From the sequence record OR544956: a stretch of 64,000 nucleotides of DNA; one strand, written 5' to 3'. The stretch is from Escherichia phage vB_EcoM_EP57. Positions within the stretch are counted from its first letter, which is position 1, and each line of letters opens with the position of its first letter. Below are positions 3,941 to 64,000 of the stretch, piece by piece. The notes under the pieces are model-generated. The model saw only the letters and a program-made list of their open reading frames with translations, searched no databases and had not been told where the DNA came from. A program made the position numbers and the translations under genes.

Positions 3941-4950
3941 TATTTCTCCTTAGTCATTATTTCAGACACAGATACACACTCCACTTCAGTAACCCACTCT
4001 TTACCCTCTTTATCACCATTGTGAGAAACAGAAACAACTTTAAACGGACCATCATAATCTCGGCTTTTTAACCAGATTGTTTTTTCTGGTAATATTGCAC
4101 CATTCATTTGGCATTTGAATTTAACACCATCTGTAGGTTTCTTTGCCTTCTTAGAGGACTTGGTAACTTTTTTAGTAGGTTTTATATCGTTGTGGAATGG
4201 TTCTGGACTTCCTATCAGACCAGTTTCAGGGCTAATGTAGGCGCTACGTGCACTAGACATTTGTGAACGAGGAGTGACATAAACAGATCCATCTTGTATT
4301 GACACATTGTGATCAATACTTTTACAAATATGTTCTAGGTAATGTGAAGTGTTTCCACACATAGCTGTTGCTGAAGATAAGGTTTGATCATTATCTACGT
4401 GTATATTACCTTCTGTAGTTCCTAAATCCTTTACCAAATCTGTCACAACACGTTTGATTTTAGTTCCTTTTGGATAACTGCGGCTTGTTCTTGCTTCTGC
4501 AATGTTAATACCGCCATCCAAACAGTGTAAAGTGGTTTTCCTGTCTACCGAGTCAAAAGTATCACTAACCCACTGGATAGTTCCTTTGAAAATCATAACC
4601 AACTCTTCACCTTCGTATCCTACCGCTAAAGCAACAGCCAAGTTATTTCGGATACCACGGTTTATATAGTTAACAGTATCATCCGAAAGGTTATAAACTA
4701 CAATCTCTGCTTGGTTAGGATCTTTGTTATTATCTTTCTTAATACTGAAGGTTATTTGATGGTCTTGCAACAAATACAAATTAGAAGAGGATTTTTCTGT
4801 TGTTCCTAACTTGGTATCCAAATCTACTGTAGATTTAAATGCCGAGTTCTTAGTTCTCTTCTGTATTGTGTTTGTGGCAGAACCAATTAATAGTTTGTAT
4901 GCCCTGTTTAAATTAGGGGCAGGAGCTTTTGTATACTCTCTTTCTGCCAT
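3940..4950 (-). CDS. baseplate protein
   Basis: 336-aa ORF; start overlaps stop of upstream gene. Confidence 0.35.
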   Translation of the reverse strand: MAEREYTKAPAPNLNRAYKLLIGSATNTIQKRTKNSAFKSTVDLDTKLGTTEKSSSNLYLLQDHQITFSIKKDNNKDPNQAEIVVYNLSDDTVNYINRGIRNNLAVALAVGYEGEELVMIFKGTIQWVSDTFDSVDRKTTLHCLDGGINIAEARTSRSYPKGTKIKRVVTDLVKDLGTTEGNIHVDNDQTLSSATAMCGNTSHYLEHICKSIDHNVSIQDGSVYVTPRSQMSSARSAYISPETGLIGSPEPFHNDIKPTKKVTKSSKKAKKPTDGVKFKCQMNGAILPEKTIWLKSRDYDGPFKVVSVSHNGDKEGKEWVTEVECVSVSEIMTKEK

Positions 4951-6203: not shown

Positions 6204-8048
6204 TTAACCACCAGTGTTAGATTGTCCACTTAGAGTTGAAAGAGATAAACGTTGGAAAATGCTATTTCCGCTATTTTGAATTCTTGCATCAAGAATATTT
6301 CCAAACTCTGAAGAAGGGCTGATCGTAACTTTGATAAGATCACTTGGTATTGCTACCGTATTCTCAACAACAGGTTGATTACGAGCCAAACTTACATTAG
6401 GTGTATATGCCGACTGACGTAAATCTTCCAGAGGATTACCAAATCCAAAAGCACGTGTCCTTGTTTGTTCTCCTCTCCACATACGACCAATATCTTGTGT
6501 ATCAATACCTGTTAAATTGTACAACCAATCTGCTACAGGATTGCTGTCTCCACTTTGCGTTGCCTCGTATGCTTTTTGTGCTAAAGATTTATTAGGATCT
6601 GTGTCTTTAACGTTATCCAACCAAGAATCATCTTTAGGTAAGGCTTTCACAAAACCCTCTAAGAAGTGGTTCTGCATACCTTGACCTACAAGCTGAACTG
6701 TTGCAGCAAAACGAGTAAACTCTTTAGAAGCATCTATTTGTTCTTGAGTTAATGTTGCACCTGTTCTTTGAAGCATTTTCAATACTTCATTATACCCTTC
6801 GCCGTTTTTACTAAACATACGTTGGTAGTGCATAAGGTCATCACCAAGGTTTTCAAGAAGTCGCCCGATTTGAGCAGAGTTCATACCTCGACGCTCACCT
6901 TCATTAACAGTAGCCTGAATAAAAGCTAAAGGATCGTTCTGTAAAGGTTTAAGCTGTTCTGGATTCCATCCAAACAAGTTCATAATGTCATTTATGCCAT
7001 TATCACCGCCTTTCCACTTCCCTTCTTTCTCATTCCATTTTGAGGCTAAAACTGTATTACCAAGACGTTCACGAACGTCTTTAATATTATCTATTGACTT
7101 AATAATATTTGCAGAGTCTACACCGTTCTGTTCACCCCAAGCTGTCATCGCTAAAATAGAGTTGGCGTTTGTCTGAACGTTTTCAGCGCCACGACTTACA
7201 AGTTTAATTCTTTCGTTAGTATTCATCAACGTGTTACCAACTACAGAACCACCTGCAAACAGCCCAGCACCTATTAAAGAGGATGCAATCATGCGTGGAT
7301 TAAGACCTGCTGCACCTTCTTTTAATTGTCCATATCGACGATCACGATCACGTTTTTGTTGAGCTAATTCACGCTTACGGTTGCGTTCTATATCTCTAAG
7401 TTCACGATTTCGCATACGTATACGCATTTTAGCTTCTGCTTCTAGCTCTCTACGAATACGGCGACGACCGCGAACCTCGTCTTCTATTTCAGCATTCTTT
7501 TCACGATGAGATCTGCGTAAGGCATCTAACTGGTGAGCAAGAGCTTGGTTCATACGTTGAAGAGTTATTTCACCCTTTTTGTATTGCTCTACAGCTTTAC
7601 CCATAACGTCCCTAGCTTCTTGCATAGCCCCAGGACTGGCTTTACTAAATGCTCTTGCTCTGTAGTTAAAGTTCTGCAAACGAAGATTACCTAAATCTTC
7701 CCTACGTGCTGCTGCTTTAGCTTCGCGTTCAGCAGCTTTACGAGCTTTTTCTTCTTCTCTTCCTTGCGGGGTTTTAGGAGTTCTAGGTCTACCAGATCCG
7801 CCTACAGGAGCACCCGCTCCAGCGGGAGTAGGTGCTCGCATAGGTTTTTGACTTTGAGTTTGAGCTTTCTTAAGTTCACGCTCAATCTCTTTCATTTGTT
7901 GTCTAAACTTGGTCATGTTCATAGTGGGTTGCATTTTATTTGCAAACTTCTGAACACTCAACACGGCATCTTTTGCTTCCTTGAGACTGTTCTTGTCCAC
8001 CTTAAACGTAACCACGTTACTAATTTTGGAGGCGTTAATTTCTAACAA
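6204..8048 (-). CDS. tail tape measure protein
   Basis: 614 aa, long charged coiled-coil stretch (REEEKARKAAEREAKAAARRE...), directly downstream of the frameshifting chaperone pair. Confidence 0.5.
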   Translation of the reverse strand: MLEINASKISNVVTFKVDKNSLKEAKDAVLSVQKFANKMQPTMNMTKFRQQMKEIERELKKAQTQSQKPMRAPTPAGAGAPVGGSGRPRTPKTPQGREEEKARKAAEREAKAAARREDLGNLRLQNFNYRARAFSKASPGAMQEARDVMGKAVEQYKKGEITLQRMNQALAHQLDALRRSHREKNAEIEDEVRGRRRIRRELEAEAKMRIRMRNRELRDIERNRKRELAQQKRDRDRRYGQLKEGAAGLNPRMIASSLIGAGLFAGGSVVGNTLMNTNERIKLVSRGAENVQTNANSILAMTAWGEQNGVDSANIIKSIDNIKDVRERLGNTVLASKWNEKEGKWKGGDNGINDIMNLFGWNPEQLKPLQNDPLAFIQATVNEGERRGMNSAQIGRLLENLGDDLMHYQRMFSKNGEGYNEVLKMLQRTGATLTQEQIDASKEFTRFAATVQLVGQGMQNHFLEGFVKALPKDDSWLDNVKDTDPNKSLAQKAYEATQSGDSNPVADWLYNLTGIDTQDIGRMWRGEQTRTRAFGFGNPLEDLRQSAYTPNVSLARNQPVVENTVAIPSDLIKVTISPSSEFGNILDARIQNSGNSIFQRLSLSTLSGQSNTGG

Positions 8049-8068
8049 AGTATGTTCCTCGTGTTGGA

Positions 8069-8407
8069 TTAAACAAGTTTCTTAAACAAATCTGACATTT
8101 TATTTGTCTGGTTTTGATGTTTTCTCTTTATTGAAGTGTCTTTAACATACATGGCTTCAACATACTCTTCGTATGTTAAATACTCATATAGTTTTAAAAG
8201 ATAATCTACACCGTAGTTATCCAATGTTTTCAGTGTTTCCGAGGTATCTTTAACGACTTTGCAAAGAATAACCTCATACCACTTCAAAGTAAGGGTTTTC
8301 GTTGCTGTGTCGATAGCATGTTCAATCGCAGGTGTTAATTTGCTGCTAAACTCGTCATCGCCTGAAGCTGTGTGAACAGTTTTCCGAAACCTCGTTTGAA
8401 AAAAGGG
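8069..8407 (-). CDS. tail assembly chaperone frameshift extension (GT-like, reached by -1 slip)
   Basis: -1 frame is open continuously from the slippery site at 8398..8407 to the stop at 8069; downstream ORF has no RBS of its own. Confidence 0.45.
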   Translation of the reverse strand, partial: PFFQTRFRKTVHTASGDDEFSSKLTPAIEHAIDTATKTLTLKWYEVILCKVVKDTSETLKTLDNYGVDYLLKLYEYLTYEEYVEAMYVKDTSIKRKHQNQTNKMSDLFKKLV

Positions 8408-8817
8408 CCGTAGTTTACCTCCAGAACTTTAGCAGTAAGATCTAACACTAGTTCTGGGTGAGCCATAAATAATTCATCAAAATTTTCTGCAACGTTATAA
8501 CCGTCTTGAGTATAAACCTCATCTAAAATTTTACGCAAAAATACAGTTAAATTCTTTTCTTCCAAACCTGCAAAAAGTTGGATCAGTGCCATAGCAATAC
8601 GTGACTCAAGGTCTTCGTCTGCGGACATTGTTGCTGTGCTATACATAGTCATAGGAACAACCAGAACACTACCCAATTCTGGAATCCTGTCAAACACTTT
8701 AGATGGACTCCACTTCATAATACGGAAAGTAACAGATCTGTTTCCATCTAACGGAATCTCAACTACTTCTTCTGGTCGAGCATATTTTTGAATCGTGTTA
8801 TCTTGTTCTTGTGACAT
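8335..8817 (-). CDS. tail assembly chaperone (G-like, zero-frame product)
   Basis: 160-aa ORF between tube and tape measure genes; slippery run near its 3' end. Confidence 0.5.
   Translation of the reverse strand: MSQEQDNTIQKYARPEEVVEIPLDGNRSVTFRIMKWSPSKVFDRIPELGSVLVVPMTMYSTATMSADEDLESRIAMALIQLFAGLEEKNLTVFLRKILDEVYTQDGYNVAENFDELFMAHPELVLDLTAKVLEVNYGPFFKRGFGKLFTQLQAMTSLAAN
8398..8407 (-). promoter_or_regulatory. programmed -1 ribosomal frameshift slippery site (CCCTTTTTTC)
   Basis: zero-frame codons GGC CCT TTT TTC; X_XXY_YYZ heptamer T_TTT_TTC. Confidence 0.45.
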
Positions 8818-21553: not shown

Positions 21554-21632
21554 TGGAGGCGGGAATTGGATTTGAACCAATGATCTCCAGCATATGAAAC
21601 TGGCGAGGACGACCAGACTCCTCTATCCCGCT
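21554..21632 (-). tRNA. tRNA-Met (anticodon CAT), CCA encoded
   Basis: hand-folded cloverleaf; T arm ATTGG-TTCAAAT-CCAAT; anticodon loop TTCATAT; A1:C72 mismatch noted. Confidence 0.5.
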
Positions 21633-21638
21633 ATTATG

Positions 21639-21710
21639 TATCCCGTGCTGGATTCGAACCAGCATCACAATAAGCTGTGGAACTCTTATCCTGTAAGTCT
21701 AACGGGAAAC
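21639..21710 (-). tRNA. tRNA-like element, anticodon not resolved (possible pseudo-tRNA)
   Basis: T arm GCTGG-TTCGAAT-CCAGC and acceptor-like ends, but no canonical anticodon arm found by eye. Confidence 0.25.
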
Positions 21711-21784
21711 TGGTTGTTTCGACAAGAATCGAACTTGTGTCTCACGATTATCAGTCGTGGGTTCTACCATTGAACTACGAAACA
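21711..21784 (-). tRNA. tRNA-Ile (anticodon GAT), CCA encoded
   Basis: acceptor TGTTTCG/CGAAACA, D arm GTTC-AATGGTA-GAAC, anticodon arm CACGA-CTGATAA-TCGTG. Confidence 0.65.
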
Positions 21785-21790
21785 TTAAAT

Positions 21791-21867
21791 TGGTCGGAAT
21801 TGCAGGATTCGAACCTGCGACCCTACGCTCCCAAAGCGTATGCTCTACCAAACTGAGCTAAATTCCG
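21791..21867 (-). tRNA. tRNA-Pro (anticodon TGG), CCA encoded
   Basis: acceptor CGGAATT/AATTCCG, D arm GCTC-AGTTTGGTA-GAGC, anticodon arm TACGC-TTTGGGA-GCGTA. Confidence 0.65.
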
Positions 21868-21960
21868 TCATAACATTCTAAAGGTACACCGCAAAAGAAA
21901 GTGTTCGGCGGCTCCTCGTTTTTAACTTCACACTTGAGGTAGTGACTCACCTTTGTTATA

Positions 21961-22036
21961 TGGCTGGTCTGTCTGGATTTGAACCAAACCTACGACAGTC
22001 AAAGTGTCGTGTGCTACCGGACTACACTACAAACCA
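21961..22036 (-). tRNA. tRNA-Gln (anticodon TTG), CCA encoded
   Basis: anticodon arm CGACA-CTTTGAC-TGTCG; T loop TTCAAAT; acceptor pairs with one G-U. Confidence 0.55.
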
Positions 22037-22134
22037 ATAAATCATTTAATGAAGGGCAACCAGAAGAGGTGTGAGAGAAGGAGAAAACCATGAGTAAAAG
22101 AGAAAGTTTTCTGGCAACCCTTTATTAAATAATT

Positions 22135-22208
22135 TGGAGCGTTCTACGAGGATCGAACTCGTGCCGCCGACTTGGAAGGACGGAATGCTACCGCTACACC
22201 AAGAACGC
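22135..22208 (-). tRNA. tRNA-Gly (anticodon TCC), CCA encoded
   Basis: acceptor GCGTTCT/AGAACGC; anticodon loop CTTCCAA; T arm ACGAG-TTCGATC-CTCGT. Confidence 0.5.
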
Positions 22209-22219
22209 CCTACATCTTT

Positions 22220-22249
22220 ACTATACTACATTTTACTATTGGTTGTCAA
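22220..22249 (-). promoter_or_regulatory. promoter with AACTATTGACAA element, start site just upstream of the tRNA at 22208
   Basis: minus strand TTGACA - 18 nt - TATAGT. Confidence 0.45.
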
Positions 22250-22438
22250 TAGTTTTATTGAGTGGGACAGTGACGAGTATCCCGTTGGGTGACTAGCCCT
22301 ACGTTCGGTAAGCTAACTTAAAATAATACAAAACCAAAGTCAAATATTATTCTTCGTTGCTGTCGATGGGAGAGCCGCTTCTCATTTTGCCCCATCCAAC
22401 CCTACTCCGGTCAAGTTTCGGGTAACTCTTTTTGTGTG

Positions 22439-22527
22439 ATCAACACAATACTAAGAACACTGTCTTTCGAACAGACCTTGTGCACAGGATACGACGATCA
22501 ATCACAGTGCTCTTAATGTTGTGTTGG
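22439..22527 (-). ncRNA. tRNA-like degenerate element (GTTCGAA loop, 8-bp terminal pairing), not a canonical tRNA
   Basis: ends CAACACAA/TTGTGTTG pair; internal hairpin with TTCGAA loop; no cloverleaf could be completed. Confidence 0.2.
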
Positions 22528-22599
22528 TGCTCCCACACTGAATCGAACAGAGATCCACGGATTACAAAACCGTTGTAATAGCCATTATACTATAGGAGC
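22525..22599 (-). tRNA. tRNA-Thr (anticodon TGT), CCA encoded
   Basis: acceptor GCTCCTA/TGGGAGC (one G-U); anticodon loop TTTGTAA. Confidence 0.45.
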
Positions 22600-22605
22600 A
22601 AAGCT

Positions 22606-22682
22606 GGGACTCGGCAGGATTCGATACCTGCAATTCCAGAAGCCTCTTGGCGACTGGGGGTTTACCTTAACTCTACAAGTCC
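22606..22682 (-). tRNA. tRNA, anticodon not resolved by eye
   Basis: acceptor GGACTTG/CGAGTCC pairs; T-arm-like GCAGG-TATCGAAT-CCTGC with 8-nt loop. Confidence 0.3.
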
Positions 22683-22689
22683 ATAATTC

Positions 22690-22775
22690 TGGCGATGAGT
22701 ATAGGATTTGAACCTATATCGTTCTTTCGAACACGGATTAACAGTCCGCCGCTTAAACCATTCAGCCAACTCATC
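22690..22775 (-). tRNA. class II (long variable arm) tRNA with apparent anticodon GTT
   Basis: acceptor GATGAGT/ACTCATC; anticodon arm GCGGA-CTGTTAA-TCCGT; variable arm GTTC-GAAA-GAAC; T arm ATAGG-TTCAAAT-CCTAT. Confidence 0.45.
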
Positions 22776-22781
22776 TTAATT

Positions 22782-22869
22782 TGGTGGTGAGTGATGGAGT
22801 TGAACCACCCGAATCGCAATGATAACAGATTTACAGTCTGCCCCGCTACCCCTACGGAATTAACTCACC
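22782..22869 (-). tRNA. tRNA-Tyr (anticodon GTA), class II, CCA encoded
   Basis: acceptor GGTGAGT/ACTCACC; anticodon arm GCAGA-CTGTAAA-TCTGT; T arm GGTGG-TTCAACT-CCATC. Confidence 0.6.
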
Positions 22870-22947
22870 TAAATACTAATATTTAAATTCTTTTTAAAAT
22901 AGCCAGTGTTCACACCACTAACTATGTAAGCCATATTAAAAAGAACT

Positions 22948-23033
22948 TGGCGGTAGATGTAGGACTCGAACCTACACGCCGTTTCCGACTACAGTTTAGC
23001 AAACTGTCGTGGCTACCATTTCACCAATCTACC
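22948..23033 (-). tRNA. tRNA-Ser (anticodon GCT), class II, CCA encoded
   Basis: acceptor GGTAGAT/ATCTACC; anticodon arm ACAGT-TTGCTAA-ACTGT; long variable arm. Confidence 0.6.
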
Positions 23034-23038
23034 TAATC

Positions 23039-23129
23039 TGGCGGAAGGAGGGAGAGTCGAACTCCCAAGGCTCTTTCAAGCTCGGCGGTTTTCAAGACCG
23101 TTTTCGTCGCCACGTCGATTTGCCCTTCC
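23039..23129 (-). tRNA. tRNA-Ser (anticodon TGA), class II, CCA encoded
   Basis: acceptor GGAAGGG/TCCTTCC; anticodon loop CTTGAAA; long variable arm; T arm GGGAG-TTCGACT-CTCCC. Confidence 0.5.
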
Positions 23130-23138
23130 ATACTTATA

Positions 23139-23167
23139 ATCTAACATAAAATAATGTTTGTTGTCAA
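23139..23167 (-). promoter_or_regulatory. promoter with AACTATTGACAA element, start site at the tRNA-Ser 5' end
   Basis: minus strand TTGACA - 17 nt - TTAGAT. Confidence 0.4.
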
Positions 23168-23363
23168 TAGTTTTTTAAAACATTTTACCATGAATGGTGA
23201 CTCCACCAACCCCCGTTCTCCACGAACGGTGCTCTTCGAGCATTTATGTCTTCTAATATAACCGTGGCCTTTGTTTATAATGTCTGACATACTTGCCTCA
23301 TTCTCTGCCACCATGATCAGTAGTGGGTTCAAATTACTTGAGCTAATTCATGTTAAAATGTTC

Positions 23364-23438
23364 TGGTGTCTTTACAAGGAATCGAACCTTGACTAAGAGT
23401 TTAGAAGACTCCTGTGCTATCCATTACACCATAAAGAC
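23364..23438 (-). tRNA. tRNA-Arg (anticodon TCT), CCA encoded
   Basis: acceptor GTCTTTA/TAAAGAC; anticodon arm GGAGT-CTTCTAA-ACTCT; T arm CAAGG-TTCGATT-CCTTG. Confidence 0.6.
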
Positions 23439-23440
23439 GT

Positions 23441-23515
23441 TGGTGGCCCTGGCTGGTTTCGATCCAGCTACCTATCGGTTATGAGCCGACAGCTCTCCCA
23501 TTGAGCTACAGGGCC
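23441..23515 (-). tRNA. tRNA-Met (anticodon CAT; could be fMet or Ile2), CCA encoded
   Basis: acceptor GGCCCTG/CAGGGCC; D arm GCTC-AATGGGA-GAGC; anticodon arm GTCGG-CTCATAA-CCGAT. Confidence 0.6.
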
Positions 23516-45540: not shown

Positions 45541-46033
45541 TCGCCCAACGAGCGATTATTATCCGACACCGCAAAAAGCAATCAATAGTTTGTTTAGTGT
45601 TATAGATTTCAAAAATCTAAAGGAAGAAGGTTGGGTTTTTGCAGAACCTTGCAGAGGTGAAGCTGAAGCGATTTATCGCCATTTTCCTGAAGGTTCAGAA
45701 TATTGCGAACTTGAAGAAGGTAAAGATTATTTTAGTCATGAATGGGAAAATCGTCCCGACATTATAATCACAAATCCTCCATTTAAGTTAGCAATGGAGT
45801 TCTTGGAAAAGAGCTTAAAAGAGGCGGATGTTTGTATTTATCTTCTTCGGTTGGGCTTCTTGGAGTCAAAGAAACGACGAGAGTTCCATCAAAAGAATCC
45901 ACCAACAAACCTTATAGTTCTTTCAGAACGGCCTTCGTTTGTTGCAGGTGGAACAGATAAGACAGCATACGCTTGGTATGTATACGACCCAAAGAATCGT
46001 TTGGGCCTCTCTCAACCATTTTATTTTGTTTAA
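45524..46033 (+). CDS. small N6-adenine DNA methyltransferase-like protein
   Basis: DYYPTP, AEPCRGEAEA (AdoMet pocket-like) and IITNPPF ((D/N)PP(Y/F)) motifs; 169 aa. Confidence 0.45.
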   Translation: MALDYDRPTSDYYPTPQKAINSLFSVIDFKNLKEEGWVFAEPCRGEAEAIYRHFPEGSEYCELEEGKDYFSHEWENRPDIIITNPPFKLAMEFLEKSLKEADVCIYLLRLGFLESKKRREFHQKNPPTNLIVLSERPSFVAGGTDKTAYAWYVYDPKNRLGLSQPFYFV

Positions 46034-46485: not shown

Positions 46486-46963
46486 TATACTTATACTCCC
46501 TTTTCGGAGGGAGTATTTTTAAGGAGGGATTATGCAGAGCGGAGAAGAACTTTTAGAGAAACAATTCTCAACGCGTTAAGTTATATAGTTTTTCTAAGCA
46601 ATCTTGATGTGAATGAGATACTTTTACGGCGCGAAGGTAATTTCTGGAGCGTTAAATATCATGCAACAAGGTCTGTAATCTACCTGGAAGAGGCGGAATT
46701 CTCTTTGGTAGAATGATCCGAGGAGTAGTTATGCGTTCAACTTTCACTGGCAAAATAAATGCTGGTTTGATTTTTACAGCAGTAAGCATTCTTAGCAAAA
46801 AGTTTAAAGTTGTTAACTTACCTGTGTGTGTCGATTTCGATCATGTTTTTGATCCTTCGAACCCCACTCGTTGCATAGTAAGGAGCAATGTTGAAAACCC
46901 AACAGAAAATCTTTTTATGTAACAAAACCATCTCAAAGCATACTTAACCAGGTTGAGGCGAAA

Positions 46964-51012: not shown

Positions 51013-51022
51013 TAAATAATAA

Positions 51023-51044
51023 CCCGCTTCGGCGGGTTTTTTAT
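51023..51044 (+). terminator. rho-independent terminator
   Basis: CCCGC-TTCG-GCGGG followed by TTTTTTAT. Confidence 0.6.
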
Positions 51045-54666: not shown

Positions 54667-54692
54667 ACGACCTCCTATTGCTACAGATATGA

Positions 54693-54718
54693 AAAAACCC
54701 GCCGAAGCGGGTTCTATT
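54693..54718 (-). terminator. rho-independent terminator
   Basis: minus strand CCCGC-TTCG-GCGGG followed by TTTTTT. Confidence 0.5.
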
Positions 54719-54757
54719 GCTACGATAGGATCACTATCCTATAGTATTGTTTCTGTG

Positions 54758-58596: not shown

Positions 58597-58800
58597 TTAC
58601 TCATTTCTACCTCCTTCAATGCTTTGTGCCGTACCATCCCAAGCCATTAGAATATTTGCCAATAGCTCACGAGGCTCTTTAAACCAAACTTCCATTTCAT
58701 CAAGGATCTCGTCCGTGTCGTAAGTATAACCTGGAACACCAAGTTCACATTTCTTAAGATAGCTTTCTAACCAGCGGTGATAATTCTTAACCCCATTCAT
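58597..58800 (-). CDS. hypothetical protein
   Basis: 67-aa ORF. Confidence 0.3.
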   Translation of the reverse strand: MNGVKNYHRWLESYLKKCELGVPGYTYDTDEILDEMEVWFKEPRELLANILMAWDGTAQSIEGGRNE

Positions 58801-59173
58801 ACTGTGCTACCTTTTCTTTTACCCAATCTACACGATCTTTATCATAATGTTGAGTGCCAAGGAAAAGACCATTGTGGAAACTTTCCTCACCGAAAGGATA
58901 AATTGGATCTAAACCATCTTCTTCAAACAACATTTTTAATCTGTTTGATGTAGATTTCTTAGTTTCTGAATTGTAGTTTGTGGTTATAAGCCAATCTTCC
59001 AAACAACGACACAAGCCTTGACGAGAATCCCAAGGAAAAACACAATCTCCGACAGGAGCTTGTTCCGCCCATTTCAACCAACCTTTAAAAAAGTTATACA
59101 ATATGTAGTCTTCAGTGTAATACATTAGCGCCTCCTTTACATATACAATAACACCCCGCAGAACGGGGTGCAA
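58787..59173 (-). CDS. paralog family member A (DR[VI]xWV[KR] C-terminal motif)
   Basis: shares GLC core and C-terminal DRVDWVKEKVAQ with 60065, 62948 and 63707 ORFs. Confidence 0.45.
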   Translation of the reverse strand: MHPVLRGVIVYVKEALMYYTEDYILYNFFKGWLKWAEQAPVGDCVFPWDSRQGLCRCLEDWLITTNYNSETKKSTSNRLKMLFEEDGLDPIYPFGEESFHNGLFLGTQHYDKDRVDWVKEKVAQYEWG

Positions 59174-59792: not shown

Positions 59793-60065
59793 TCACCCCC
59801 AAGAAATATTTATATATCTTACAATGTTTGCACTGTCTAAAGCCATGTTTGCACCACACCCACGCTCGCGCCAGTAACTAACAATACCTTCACAGATACT
59901 CTCTTGTATCTTCTTATCACTTGGCATTTCTAGTATAAGACTTGGGTTATGGATGTTTATGTTATAATATCCTTCCTCTGCGGCTTGAGCTACCAATTTA
60001 CTTACTTTTTCAAAGTACGGGGAATTAGTGGCATCTGCTATTGTTTTTAAGGTTTGTCTATCCAT
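59793..60065 (-). CDS. hypothetical protein
   Basis: 90-aa ORF. Confidence 0.3.
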   Translation of the reverse strand: MDRQTLKTIADATNSPYFEKVSKLVAQAAEEGYYNINIHNPSLILEMPSDKKIQESICEGIVSYWRERGCGANMALDSANIVRYINISWG

Positions 60066-60463
60066 TATTCTGCCTCATCATAGAAGAAATCCAACTCTTG
60101 TTCCAGTTGTTTAACTCGATCCTTAACCCACTGTACACGTTTTTCATTAAACATGCAACGTTTTTCCTTACACTCTTGCTCAAAAGATTTTGCTGTGTTA
60201 AATGGGAAAGTTGTATCTAAGCCAGCGTTTTCAAAACTGGCTAATTGCATACCATAAACAGAATATGCTAAAGAATGCTCGGCCCGAAATTCATCACTTA
60301 TATACATACGTAGACCTCGGCATAAGCCAACATCAGCGTAACCACTTTCTCTTGGAAAGAGACGGAGGTGTTCTAACCAATTATTATAAAAATCTAAAAG
60401 AATCCTCTTACACTTCAAATCGATTGTCATAAAAAGTTTCTCCTTCATCGAACAAGTTGGCAA
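60065..60463 (-). CDS. paralog family member B
   Basis: C-terminal KRVQWVKDRVKQ and GLCRGL core. Confidence 0.45.
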   Translation of the reverse strand: MPTCSMKEKLFMTIDLKCKRILLDFYNNWLEHLRLFPRESGYADVGLCRGLRMYISDEFRAEHSLAYSVYGMQLASFENAGLDTTFPFNTAKSFEQECKEKRCMFNEKRVQWVKDRVKQLEQELDFFYDEAE

Positions 60464-60749
60464 GATTGTTCACGGCAATCTGGGTGGAAAGAAGACAACT
60501 GTTTGCAGACACATAAGCACGAGCTATTTTGTAAACATAAACTTTCGTATTACAATTGTCTAGGATCGGAAGACTTTCGTCGATAGCATCTATAACACTA
60601 AACATCACATCTAAAACTTTAATGGTGAGTGTTGTATTTGTATCTTCGTAACCTTTTTCAATCCGACCTGAATAGAAAGCATAGTCCTCAACAGTTCGTC
60701 GTTTAAACTGGCGCATAAAATCGGAACCATCTGTAGCAGAATTGAACAA
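60408..60749 (-). CDS. hypothetical protein
   Basis: 113-aa ORF. Confidence 0.3.
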   Translation of the reverse strand: MFNSATDGSDFMRQFKRRTVEDYAFYSGRIEKGYEDTNTTLTIKVLDVMFSVIDAIDESLPILDNCNTKVYVYKIARAYVSANSCLLSTQIAVNNLANLFDEGETFYDNRFEV

Positions 60750-60837
60750 ATTTTCAAAAAATACGTCCCATCCGGCAAAAGGGCTGACAGCATGATTAAG
60801 TGATCTACAGATTCATTTTCTTGTTTCATATCCTCTC

Positions 60838-61515
60838 CTATTTAATGTTCAGTCTGGCACACAAACGGGAAACAGTTTTAGCATCCCATTTACCACCACG
60901 TGCTGTTGCTATTTTCTTACTATTGAATTTTTCAGCAATAGTTTTGTAAGGTGTATTTAAATCTCTAAGGATCTCCAAGCGTTCACGGAATGTCTCTGCA
61001 AAAGCGTCTGCTTTAACAGAATTGTATTCCATTTTTCCTTTTCTACGTGCAGCGGCAGTTTTAGGATTAGCACTGCCTAATAAAACACCTTTACTTTTTG
61101 CTACAGCAAGACCCTTTTTAATACGATCAGCAATACCTCTAACTTCTTGTTCAGCCAGAACAGACAGAAGCTGTATAACCATTTTATCTGCGTCTGGCAT
61201 AATGGCTATCTTAACATCGATCATTTCTAGAAGAGTTGCTACGGAGGCGTTGTTACGACCCAAGCGGTCAACTTTAGCTACCAATAAAGTTGCTCCGGTA
61301 GCTTTACACATTTCAACCGCTTTAACCAGTTCCTTACGTTGCTTCCAATCGCCCTTACCCGAATAGTATTCAGAAAATTGACCAATAACTTCCGCATCAG
61401 GCACAGAGTCTAAGAAGTAACGGATATCATTCTCTTGGCTCTCCATACCATATTGTGCCTCACCTTTTTTCTGTTTAGAAAGACGACTGTAAACAACAAA
61501 CTTTTTCATAACCAC
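60838..61515 (-). CDS. serine recombinase (resolvase/invertase family)
   Basis: N-terminal VYSRLS (catalytic Ser region), LLVAKVDRLGRN, LSVLAEQEVRGIADRIKKGL; 225 aa. Confidence 0.7.
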   Translation of the reverse strand: MVMKKFVVYSRLSKQKKGEAQYGMESQENDIRYFLDSVPDAEVIGQFSEYYSGKGDWKQRKELVKAVEMCKATGATLLVAKVDRLGRNNASVATLLEMIDVKIAIMPDADKMVIQLLSVLAEQEVRGIADRIKKGLAVAKSKGVLLGSANPKTAAARRKGKMEYNSVKADAFAETFRERLEILRDLNTPYKTIAEKFNSKKIATARGGKWDAKTVSRLCARLNIK

Positions 61516-61579
61516 TCCTAAACTATTGCTGTATTCTCACTTTACAAAACGAATAAACACTTGTCAAGGTATTTATTAT

Positions 61580-61792
61580 TTACAGCCATTCTACTCTTAA
61601 GCAGTATTCCTCGACATGTTGTTTACGCTTGTTTTTGTCTATGTAAGTGTATTCAACAAATGTCCCAAGATAGTCCTTGTCTACATTGTGTGGGCTATTG
61701 ATTGGACATTTAGTACGACAAACCCGTTGCCACTGACGAAGAATTACGGCTTTGTTTTTAGGATCAAAGGGATGAGGGTAATGTACCTTCAT
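61580..61792 (-). CDS. hypothetical small protein
   Basis: 70-aa ORF. Confidence 0.3.
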   Translation of the reverse strand: MKVHYPHPFDPKNKAVILRQWQRVCRTKCPINSPHNVDKDYLGTFVEYTYIDKNKRKQHVEEYCLRVEWL

Positions 61793-62116
61793 TCACGCCT
61801 CCTGTTTTAGTCGAAAAATATTTTGAATAACTAGAGATGTATAGTTATCACCTAGTCCCATAAGTTCTACTTCCAAGTTTCGAATATCCTCCACCGTAGG
61901 AGGATATGTTGGTAAAAATGCTTGAGCATTACCAGATCCAACTTCATTGCTGTAAGCAGTTGTAAAATTGTAAGATACAAAACATGAAACACCTTTTTGT
62001 CGGTACCCGATTAATCGACGAATACACCAGATAAGAGCCAAACCTATGAGAACACCTCCTAAACCAGCTAACAAGAAGGATAAGTTCATAATAGCTTCGT
62101 TAACAACTGCTTCCAT
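61793..62116 (-). CDS. membrane protein (one predicted TM helix)
   Basis: LSFLLAGLGGVLIGLALIWCI hydrophobic segment. Confidence 0.35.
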   Translation of the reverse strand: MEAVVNEAIMNLSFLLAGLGGVLIGLALIWCIRRLIGYRQKGVSCFVSYNFTTAYSNEVGSGNAQAFLPTYPPTVEDIRNLEVELMGLGDNYTSLVIQNIFRLKQEA

Positions 62117-62947: not shown

Positions 62948-63274
62948 TCAACTATTTATTTCTTCTGCTACACGTTCTTTTACCCAGTTCACACGATCCA
63001 CATTCAAATGACAACGGCTTTTTTCCGCTTCTAAGGTGTACTTTCCAAAATTACTGTTGAAAGGCAACACCATAACCAAATCTTTGTGGTAGAACTGCTC
63101 ATGCATTTCATCCAGTACGGGTTCGTATCGTTCGCTTTCACCCATATCGTAAAAATCATAGAGGTTCGAGCACAAACCTGTGCAACGGGTGAACGGTTCG
63201 CCTTCAGGAGCACCAGCTTCCAACCATGCCAAATACGTGCGGTAAAATGTTAATAGTTCTTCGCTCATTTCCAC
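62948..63274 (-). CDS. paralog family member C
   Basis: YLAWLEAGAPEGEPFTRCTGLCSNLYDFY and C-terminal HLNVDRVNWVKERVAEE. Confidence 0.45.
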   Translation of the reverse strand: MEMSEELLTFYRTYLAWLEAGAPEGEPFTRCTGLCSNLYDFYDMGESERYEPVLDEMHEQFYHKDLVMVLPFNSNFGKYTLEAEKSRCHLNVDRVNWVKERVAEEINS

Positions 63275-63483: not shown

Positions 63484-63707
63484 TCTTCCATCTCAAACCA
63501 TTCAGGGAACACTTTGCGGAAGACCCGCGTGTTTTCTAAGAGAAATTCCAACTCTTTTTCCAAATCTGCGTTCCAACCGTTTATTTTAACACGGATTGCC
63601 AATGCACTTGCACGGCGACTCAATTCTTGACAGATTGGATCACGCAGAACTATTGAGTCATAAAACTGACAAACAGCCTCAAGTTCATACCAGTTATAAT
63701 CCGACAT
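63480..63707 (-). CDS. hypothetical protein
   Basis: 75-aa ORF. Confidence 0.3.
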   Translation of the reverse strand: MSDYNWYELEAVCQFYDSIVLRDPICQELSRRASALAIRVKINGWNADLEKELEFLLENTRVFRKVFPEWFEMEE

Positions 63708-64000
63708 TATTCATCCTCCTCTGCAATACGATCTCTTACCCAATTAATCCTGTCCACATTCAGGTGACATACCTCTGCATCTGATTCTAAGACATATGCA
63801 TCGTAGTTCTCATTGAAGGGTAATTCTTGACTCAACCCTTTGTAGTAAAACTGTGCGTGCATTTCATCTGACAAGGTTGTTATAAGGGGATTGTAGCCAT
63901 CCGCGTGCACATAGTCGAATAAGTTGGCACACAAACCGCAATCCCGCCGAAAAGGTTTACCATCAGGAGCACCAACATCAATCCATGCTAGATAAATTTT
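63707..64000 (-). CDS. paralog family member D (5' end beyond window)
   Basis: frame open to window edge; IYLAWIDVGAPDGKPFRRDCGLCANLFDYV and HLNVDRINWVRDRIAEE; track M is an internal TTG. Confidence 0.45.
   Translation of the reverse strand, partial: KIYLAWIDVGAPDGKPFRRDCGLCANLFDYVHADGYNPLITTLSDEMHAQFYYKGLSQELPFNENYDAYVLESDAEVCHLNVDRINWVRDRIAEEDE

Follow-up and report, generated by a model that had tools for sequence, protein, structure and literature searches.

A putative small serine recombinase with a predicted early promoter in phAPEC8-like virulent phages

The recombinase gene and its predicted product

The stretch of DNA analysed in this work (64,000 nucleotides, referred to as the window) belongs to Escherichia phage vB_EcoM_EP57 (sequence record OR544956). 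The list of open reading frames contains a serine recombinase ORF on the minus strand at 60838..61515, which encodes 225 amino acids if translation starts at a GTG codon. The features of the gene and of its product are listed below, with residues numbered as in the 225-aa version.

60838..61509, minus strand: coding sequence of the recombinase, 223 aa from the ATG at 61509, the GTG at 61515 adding two codons (Pfam, PHROG 125, public records)
61515..61519, minus strand: Shine-Dalgarno sequence AGGAG, 5 nt upstream of the ATG at 61509, read from the sequence
61084..61497, minus strand: catalytic (resolvase N-terminal) domain with E-helix, residues 7-144 (Pfam limits, structural model, Foldseek)
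61477..61479, minus strand: codon for the predicted catalytic serine of the motif Y-S-R-L-S (S13 in the 225-aa version, S11 in the 223-aa version)
61252..61281, minus strand: motif VAKVDRLGRN, residues 79-88, equivalent to the D67-R68...R71 active-site cluster of gamma-delta resolvase
60853..61065, minus strand: predicted C-terminal four-helix DNA-binding-type domain, residues 151-221, recombinase-domain HTH-like (probably HTH_62 type) and not HTH_7

The first-pass annotation had described a protein of 225 amino acids. The reading frame itself stands, but its length probably does not: the ATG at 61509, giving 223 amino acids, is the most likely start because the AGGAG at 61515-61519 overlaps the candidate GTG, the coding sequence in the public records of UP17, nepoznato and phAPEC8 is 672 nt long, the representative of the 90%-identity cluster (P0001) has 223 residues, and phage Schickermooser has GCG at the position of the candidate GTG.

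In a Pfam profile search residues 7-144 matched PF00239 (Resolvase) with E=5.4e-18 and 65.9 bits, the curated cut-off being 23.3 bits. PHROG 125 ('DNA invertase') was matched with E=1e-32, and the PDB chains matched were those of Tn3/gamma-delta resolvase, Sin and Gin. The Y-x-R-x-S motif near the N-terminus and the conserved set of Arg, Asp and Glu active-site residues are both present. VYSRLS occupies residues 8-13 (225-aa numbering), and VAKVDRLGRN aligns to VKKLDRLGRD of Tn3/gamma-delta resolvase. These matches place the protein in the serine recombinase superfamily (PF00239), and the reading frame, the two motifs and the resolvase/invertase assignment of the first-pass annotation are all borne out by the sequence and by the Pfam, PHROG 125 and PDB matches. 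Nine residues (Y9, R11, S13, Q27, R60, D83, R84, R87 and E124) were invariant in 30 of 30 aligned relatives, down to 32% identity, and by alignment they are the predicted counterparts of the serine-recombinase active site. They include S13, the catalytic serine whose retention had been left to a careful alignment.

The AlphaFold model (mean pLDDT 90.6) has a beta-alpha core followed by a long E-helix (111-141), in agreement with the alpha/beta catalytic fold and long E-helix expected of the superfamily. C-terminal helices were predicted with high confidence at 151-174, 177-185, 190-199 and 212-221. With Foldseek the best match over the full length was Bxb1, and Sin, gamma-delta resolvase and TP901-1 were matched by the catalytic part (probability 1.00). 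The C-terminal DNA-binding region noticed earlier finds its counterpart in a predicted helical domain, residues 151-221, which is probably HTH_62-like. This domain matched PF07508 ('Recombinase') with E=0.003, which is below the cut-off. PF20552 (HTH_62, 'recombinase-like HTH') was not matched by the window protein itself in the Pfam search, while the relatives P0052 and P0064 pass its cut-off, and the C-terminal consensus IA..LN..G..T.RGG.W....V.R is common to the aligned relatives. HTH_7 (PF02796) was not found in the protein at E<=0.1. Judged from its domains, the protein probably belongs with the uncharacterised group that combines Resolvase with a recombinase-like HTH (PF00239 + PF20552).

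Among the known systems compared are the Tn3/gamma-delta and Sin/beta resolvases, with which the protein shares the catalytic domain, the E-helix, the catalytic residues and the size (~200-225 aa), and also, as proposed below, resolution between directly repeated sites. In contrast to the three-helix HTH_7 at the C-terminus of Tn3-type enzymes, a longer, four-helix recombinase-like HTH is predicted here. Tn3-family and plasmid resolvases have a multi-subsite res region beside the gene, in most cases coinciding in part with its promoter, and a linked transposase or plasmid replication and partition genes, whereas here there are no repeated dyads in the upstream gap, and the neighbours are small genes and DUF7202. 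The C-terminal helices resemble the first part of the recombinase domain of the large serine integrases (Bxb1, PhiC31, TP901-1, SPbeta). However, these enzymes exceed 400 aa and have the full recombinase domain, a zinc ribbon and a coiled coil, whereas the 223-225 aa found here accommodate the first helices only, and of integration there is no sign in this virulent virus. When read by eye, the insertion after the catalytic serine (S-K-Q-K-K-G-E-A-Q-Y-G-M-E-S-Q) is more like that of large serine recombinases. In IS607-type transposases a MerR-like HTH precedes the catalytic domain; here the order is reversed, the catalytic domain beginning at residue 4-7 and the DNA-binding domain following at the C-terminus.

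The predicted HTH-type C-terminal domain would also suit a protein that is mainly a site-specific DNA-binding regulator or an architectural protein, with strand exchange not being its biological role; Tn3/gamma-delta resolvases do repress their own promoters. However, none of the catalytic residues, the nucleophilic serine among them, varies across the family, which is unexpected if only binding mattered, and no conserved operator overlaps the promoter described below. We regard a purely regulatory role as very improbable.

Conservation, genomic position and predicted promoter

With TSP7_1, a Phapecoctavirus, the window region shares 99.9% identity, and with about 60 phAPEC8-like phages (Stephanstirmvirinae) it shares 97-99%. 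The phAPEC8-like Stephanstirmvirinae phages are virulent myoviruses of ~150 kb, and Phapecoctavirus, the genus of the window phage, is virulent. The orthologs phAPEC8_0049, phi92 gp052, UP17 CAA7332583 and the 'resolvase' of Ro121lw are the same gene, without any difference in kind. The phAPEC8_0049 gene has been labelled 'putative site-specific recombinase' since its GenBank deposition, and the labels in other records are serine recombinase, resolvase and DNA invertase. Several records mislabel the gene 'methionine ABC transporter ATP-binding protein'. As the identical protein is present in about 60 public genomes and is annotated there in an essentially correct way, the object itself is not new, and the finding adds no new kind of system. 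The existing public annotation was left out of the first-pass annotation, as were the gene's own predicted early promoter and its Phapecoctavirus-specific, derived relocation (see below). Literature searches found no functional or experimental study of the recombinase or its orthologs. Concatemer resolution was proposed for it, without data, in the SKA64 genome paper, and another genome paper overlooked the gene altogether.

The recombinase was carried by 64 of the 64 Phapecoctavirus records that matched the gene at a DNA identity of at least 95%, and the same number of records matched the surrounding 25-kb region at this identity. Among the 64 records the DNA of the gene varies by up to 2.4%, and the protein is identical, start-codon call apart, in 62 records. 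Comparison with UP17, nepoznato, phAPEC8 and TSP7_1 gave 29 synonymous and no non-synonymous differences, and the dN/dS value relative to the divergent Phapecoctavirus phiWec179 was 0.17. These values indicate that the gene is under strong purifying selection, and the selection on the catalytic residues lends indirect support to site-specific strand exchange as the predicted activity of the protein. In our interpretation the window encodes an intact, selectively maintained small serine recombinase. The suggestion that the gene could be a remnant of a mobile element is contradicted, as far as a decaying remnant is meant, by the invariance of the catalytic residues, by the synonymous nature of 29 of 29 substitutions and by vertical inheritance. 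In the Schickermooser record there are seven small deletions in the 5' half of the gene; if these are real, the record may represent a natural knock-out and the gene may be dispensable.

Outside Phapecoctavirus, homologs were found in Justusliebigvirus (57% identity), in unclassified Klebsiella Stephanstirmvirinae (52-55%, with phi1_175008 at 55%), in Shewanella phage 1/40 and Vibrio phage 424E50-1 (35-37%, with Shewanella 1/40 at 35%) and in a metagenomic large phage (contig L012, 42%). Two ICP1 isolates from DRC carry a homolog with 30% identity in an isolate-specific variable region, and in Aeromonas a homolog with 42% identity is found at the border of an integrated element, beside a large serine integrase. 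IMG/VR contigs that have hardly anything else in common with the window phage contain more than 540 further, more distant relatives.

In the window the recombinase is surrounded by small genes without recognisable function. A family of four paralogs lies nearby (58787-59173, 60065-60463, 62948-63274 and 63707-63934), the flanking genes gave no informative Pfam match except DUF7202, PADLOC gave no match, and the NCBIfam matches were all far below threshold. No tail-fibre gene and no attachment site were found near the recombinase, so that the setting as originally described (a lytic phage, small accessory genes and paralogs, neither tail fibres nor an attachment site in the vicinity) holds.

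By tblastn synteny the genes of the window follow the same order as those of Justusliebigvirus VEcB throughout, the recombinase excepted. In VEcB and in Klebsiella phage phi1_175008 the recombinase is located between a small methyltransferase gene followed by two short ORFs and the gp049/phosphatase/DprA-like genes, on the same strand as these flanking genes. In Shewanella 1/40 and contig L012 its neighbours are PhoH on one side and a DprA-like gene on the other, and in FBKp34 it closes the same module, following the methyltransferase. The spot at which Justusliebigvirus and phi1_175008 carry the promoter and the recombinase is empty in the window:

46486..46532, plus strand: empty ancestral position, a spacer between the homologs of VEcB gp051 and gp049 that contains a terminator hairpin only

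In the window and in phiWec179 the recombinase is found directly behind the DUF7202 gene, in the leftward block of small early genes, which is transcribed in the opposite direction. VEcB gp011, which occupies the corresponding early-block position, was considered as a degenerate recombinase and rejected, as it is not one.

When Justusliebigvirus, phi1_175008, Shewanella 1/40 and contig L012 were compared, the divergence of the recombinase (57%, 55%, 35% and 42% identity, respectively) was about the same as that of the neighbouring PhoH, HslV and DprA-like genes, which indicates vertical descent. These values fit vertical descent combined with a single relocation, together with a promoter, in the ancestor of Phapecoctavirus; the 'accessory block' setting would therefore be derived. 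On this evidence the recombinase is an old gene of the lineage of phi92/phAPEC8-like virulent myoviruses, and the position among PhoH, methyltransferase, phosphatase and DprA-like genes is the older one.

The predicted promoter is located as follows:

61539..61567, minus strand: predicted sigma-70-type promoter, TTGACA (61567-61562), 17-nt spacer, TAAAGT (61544-61539), matching the consensus at 10 of 12 positions

It sits in the gap of 64 nt that separates the recombinase from the DUF7202 gene upstream. An equivalent promoter with TTGAC(A/T) or TTGATT was found upstream of the homologs in phiWec179 (where it lies inside the preceding ORF), VEcB, phi1_175008, Shewanella 1/40, Vibrio 424E50-1, ICP1-DRC and L012, and for the FBKp34 homolog a promoter with a weaker -10 was predicted. 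In the homologs examined from phages of gamma-proteobacteria the -35 hexamer lies ~60-80 nt before the start, whatever the genomic position of the gene. A comparable promoter was present in only 9 of 80 IMG/VR relatives, therefore the scan is not trivially positive. The nine consist for the most part of the closest relatives, together with a few contigs of unassigned host. The promoter calls are consensus matches only; they suggest that host RNA polymerase probably transcribes the recombinase very early from the gene's own promoter.

The changing location of the gene raises the question of whether promoter and recombinase form a self-propagating or hitch-hiking cassette that moves within or between phage genomes with little or no benefit to the phage. 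Among Stephanstirmvirinae there are at least three different positions, each time with an own promoter, and the accessory status in ICP1, the more than 540 relatives in unrelated viral contigs and the one record (Schickermooser) that may be a natural knock-out are all compatible with such an element. In contrast, the divergence tracks that of the neighbours over a deep lineage, so vertical descent is indicated rather than repeated transfer, and a single relocation suffices to explain the Phapecoctavirus position. Moreover, the gene is universal and protein-identical in the 60-odd Phapecoctavirus genomes despite DNA differences of up to 2.4%, and neither terminal repeats nor target duplications were found flanking it. 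These observations make a cassette of this kind improbable.

Search for target sites and rearrangements

Repeat searches for sites and REARRANGEMENTS were carried out over 14 kb (50-64 kb), over the 64-kb window and over the whole 150-kb TSP7_1 genome. No inverted or direct pair of crossover sites was found in any of the three, and thus the repeat search that had been suggested as a check gave no candidate pair. The repeats that were found represent terminators, ribosome-binding sites and paralogous coding repeats and, outside the window, also promoter-hairpin repeats. A scan for dyad symmetry (12-nt arms) gave 33 matches as compared to ~14 in shuffled sequences, the excess being terminators. 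No conserved operator or res-like array was detected beside the recombinase in any clade compared, and the promoter hexamers are the only elements that the clades have in common in the spacer upstream of the gene, which measures 64 nt in the window and 10 nt in phiWec179. The complete genome searched for sites was that of TSP7_1, so that a site co-occurring with the gene in the distant carriers could have been missed.

Several candidates were considered and rejected. Most of the gene lies between the two copies, at 60933 and 61520, of the 12-nt inverted repeat CAGCAATAGTTT; this repeat is likely due to chance because it is not conserved in UP17, which is 98.7-99% identical here, and is absent from other clades. 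A 17-nt perfect inverted match between 45591 and 60588 is a coding coincidence, being in the same frame (LFSVID vs MFSVID) and without dyad symmetry; about eight such inverted 17-mer matches exist genome-wide. Two dyads, at 54721-54746 and 61884-61907, occur once each and could not be linked to the enzyme. Finally, the sole dyad motif detected in the terminal repeats resembles the host Fur box, adjoins no recombinase homolog and shows no tie to the window protein. The terminal repeat itself is 342-343 bp long in BME3 and VEcB and is homologous to a non-coding gap in TSP7_1. From the repeat and the gap, the left genome end is predicted to lie ~7 kb past the right-hand end of the window, ~10 kb from the recombinase.

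No inversion was seen among the ~60 genomes, which are collinear over 25 kb with a single placement in each. The apparent rearrangement in WPEC2 is a patchwork, i.e. a chimeric mis-assembly. Inversion or deletion between repeats within ~10 kb, the first of the functions envisaged in the first-pass annotation, is thus not borne out, as there is neither a repeated nor a dyad site pair and the ~60 genomes are collinear over the 25-kb region.

These results bear directly on the possibility that the enzyme is a Hin/Gin-type invertase that flips a nearby segment or promoter to give two phage subtypes. The label 'DNA invertase' in several records and in PHROG 125 points in this direction. So does, marginally, the family profile, with which Gin was the best solved chain (E=3.5e-17); however, Gin, Sin and Tn3 score about equally, and the resolvase or invertase subtype cannot be read from the sequence for this reason. 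The window protein has the serine recombinase catalytic core in common with the Hin/Gin/Cin/Pin enzymes, of which Gin and Cin are also phage-encoded. The invertases are, however, associated with flanking inverted crossover sites, an invertible segment and a tail-fibre context, none of which was found here; the inverted match at 45591/60588 is the coding coincidence mentioned above, and there are no tail-fibre genes nearby. Both orientations of the segment are expected among genomes, whereas the ~60 genomes are collinear over 25 kb and the single exception, WPEC2, is a chimeric assembly. The DNA-binding domain of the invertases is HTH_7 and that of the window protein is a different one, and the phage studied here is virulent. 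By genome comparison the invertase reading appears largely refuted, and we consider it highly unlikely.

Possible roles of the recombinase

Small serine recombinases that are linked to neither a transposon nor an invertible segment usually serve in resolution or cyclisation. In the role that we rank first, the recombinase would have phage DNA as its substrate, with one site in each genome copy, and would catalyse, early in infection, a resolution- or deletion-type reaction between directly repeated copies of this site. The outcome would be the circularisation of the incoming, terminally repeated genome or the resolution of early replicative multimers, and flipping of a DNA segment would probably not be the job of the enzyme. 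The concatemer resolution mentioned in the first-pass annotation, or a related single-site reaction, is possible because only one site per genome copy is needed. In line with a single-site role, there was no site pair in the 64-kb window or in TSP7_1, and no inversion in the ~60 genomes. The terminal repeat of the relatives (342-343 bp) is short for efficient circularisation by homologous recombination, and the expression signals suggest that synthesis would be restricted to the early phase, in which case late concatemers would be spared. In terms of function, though not of descent, the proposed cyclising of terminally redundant DNA and resolution of multimers is analogous to the Cre/lox system of P1; resolvases have the corresponding function in plasmids. 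Cre, however, is a tyrosine recombinase unrelated in sequence and mechanism, P1 is temperate, and no lox-like site was found here.

An early resolution or circularisation reaction on phage DNA, although ranked first, is put forward only tentatively because no site has been found: the searches yielded no recombination site, and no res-like array lies beside the gene. In addition, the accessory nature of the ICP1 homolog, present in two DRC isolates, fits a dispensable or conflict-related function better than a core replication role, and in phages whose DNA has terminal repeats, concatemers can arise with no site-specific recombinase involved.

The main rival to this reading is an action on the host or on competing mobile DNA. 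The recombinase would then target non-phage DNA such as the host chromosome, prophages, satellites or plasmids, which it would rearrange, excise or break in the course of host takeover or counter-defence. The predicted immediate-early, host-type promoter, the failure to find a site on the phage genome and the location of the ICP1 homolog in an isolate-specific variable region all speak for such a target. So does the move of the recombinase into a small early-gene block in Phapecoctavirus, as small early-gene blocks are the usual place of takeover and anti-defence genes, and so does the Aeromonas homolog with 42% identity, given its place beside a large serine integrase at the border of an integrated element. 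On the other hand, no candidate target is known and PADLOC was without a match, while the older genomic neighbourhood of the gene is one of DNA metabolism. Furthermore, the protein is kept in phages of Escherichia, Klebsiella, Vibrio and Shewanella; because these hosts share few mobile elements, a common non-phage target is hard to picture. We consider action on non-phage DNA unlikely, while regarding it as the alternative to be taken most seriously.

It would be rather surprising, but it is conceivable, that the recombinase performs, early in the infection of this virulent myovirus lineage, a reaction that is new for lytic phages. Such a reaction could be cyclisation via a site in the ~340-bp terminal repeats, perhaps the Fur-box-like dyads located there, or it could be the targeted rearrangement of host or rival mobile DNA, serving takeover or counter-defence.

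In the screening of phages for therapy, site-specific recombinase genes are routinely regarded as a warning of lysogeny, and phAPEC8-like phages are common therapy candidates. For this use a clear statement is of value: the gene encodes, as far as can be predicted, a short resolvase-type enzyme of a virulent lineage, it is not an integrase gene, and it has no attachment site. The presence, across a virulent genus, of an apparently intact recombinase that is under strong selection and has its own predicted early promoter suggests that site-specific recombination may have some role in lytic infection. Identification of the target would tell whether the enzyme helps genome circularisation or replication, or acts against the host or competing elements.

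Labels and assembly quality in records carrying the recombinase

The small serine recombinase gene is labelled 'methionine ABC transporter ATP-binding protein' in TSP7_1, a 99.9%-identical Phapecoctavirus (MW175890, 103549-104220), and the same 'methionine ABC transporter' label is attached to it in AV125, Mt1B1_P17, the NWU phages and phAPEC8_ev052. Other records give the adjoining DUF7202 gene, which lies just upstream, the name 'putative ABC transporter ATP-binding protein'. The transporter labels on both genes look like propagated annotation errors.

Two further records deserve comment. In Schickermooser (MK373788) at least seven small deletions are found in a patch of about 500 nt, equivalent to ~61250-61700 of the window and running from the end of the preceding gene through the recombinase promoter and the 5' half of the recombinase gene, and the sequence flanking the patch is clean. 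The patch is either a natural knock-out of the recombinase or a badly assembled stretch. WPEC2 (PV691511) is a chimeric assembly, because 34.1-40 kb of its locus is a patchwork of 75-150-nt pieces originating from scattered genome positions and lying in both orientations; one junction fuses TSP7_1 position 54698 to 118839.

Disrupted genes, repeats and gene clusters within the window

Two small genes are disrupted in the window. The gene directly downstream of the recombinase (60408-60829, minus strand) is frameshifted; sequence comparison showed that the T-run at ~60776-60780 is one T shorter than in TSP7_1 and in UP17, a close relative, in both of which the counterpart is an intact ORF of 140 aa. 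The homolog of VEcB gp049 (46533-46715, plus strand) has lost 10 nt at ~46574 when compared with TSP7_1, and the loss cuts it off after 15 codons. In Justusliebigvirus, the genus of VEcB, gp049 is the small gene next after the recombinase.

A perfect 22-nt inverted pair, AACCCGCTTCGGCGGGTTTTTT, occurs at 51021-51042 and 54692-54713. The copies are identical terminator hairpins, standing face to face where convergent transcription units end; the genome has a third copy elsewhere. Two dyads are single-copy:

54721-54746, TACGATAGGATCACTATCCTATAGTA, between two genes of the minus strand, overlapping a promoter-like site
61884-61907, ATATCCTCCACCGTAGGAGGATAT, within ORF 61793-62116

Four small early genes are paralogous and have in common a C-terminal motif resembling C-H-L-N-V-D-R-V-N-W-V-K-E-R-V; a Pfam search with one of the four returned no family match. 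The structural and replication modules of the window are separated by a cluster of ten tRNA genes.

58787-59173 (-), paralogous early gene
60065-60463 (-), paralogous early gene
62948-63274 (-), paralogous early gene
63707-63934 (-), paralogous early gene
21554-23515 (-), tRNA genes: Met (two), Ile, Pro, Gln, Gly, Thr, Asn, Ser, Arg

Repeats outside the window

At 82.7-91 kb of TSP7_1, outside the window, about ten direct repeats lie between evenly spaced small genes. The unit, TAAGATGTATCACAT-AGGGCGGCAATGGTGCCGC, pairs a -10-like promoter element with a GC hairpin downstream of it, and resembles the promoter-early-stem-loop cassettes described for T4-type phages.

The dyad ATGATAATNATT(A/C)TCAT, a near-match to the E. 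coli Fur-box consensus, is present in several copies in the terminal repeat and in non-coding gaps close to it (6 copies observed in 50 kb vs 0.85 expected), with zero copies within the 64-kb window. Its sites are:

VEcB, 77-92 and 273-289; BME3, terminal repeat
TSP7_1, 31974, 32032, 42726, 43320, 43556 and 43735

A host invertase and distant homologs of the recombinase

E. fergusonii becomes resistant to the Phapecoctavirus Tay4 through a reversible inversion of its hyxR promoter, which is located downstream of ipbA, an invertase gene of the host; the study shows no tie between this inversion and the phage recombinase (bioRxiv 10.64898/2026.05.13.724931).

A homolog with 30% identity is encoded in two DRC isolates of ICP1 (4007-4762 in 2017_DRC_48), where it has its own TTGACA promoter and sits between gp30 and gp41, in a gene block missing from the classical gp numbering. 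Among the IMG/VR homologs on contigs of at least 15 kb, 8 of 33 were within 5% of a contig end, vs about 10% expected, and several of these contigs measure about 31-35 kb. The Aeromonas homolog (8001-8654) is 42% identical, and its neighbour in tail-to-tail arrangement is a large serine recombinase of 501 aa; the pair is located beside a dus gene, on the border of an integrated element that also codes for a DUF5906 primase-like protein.
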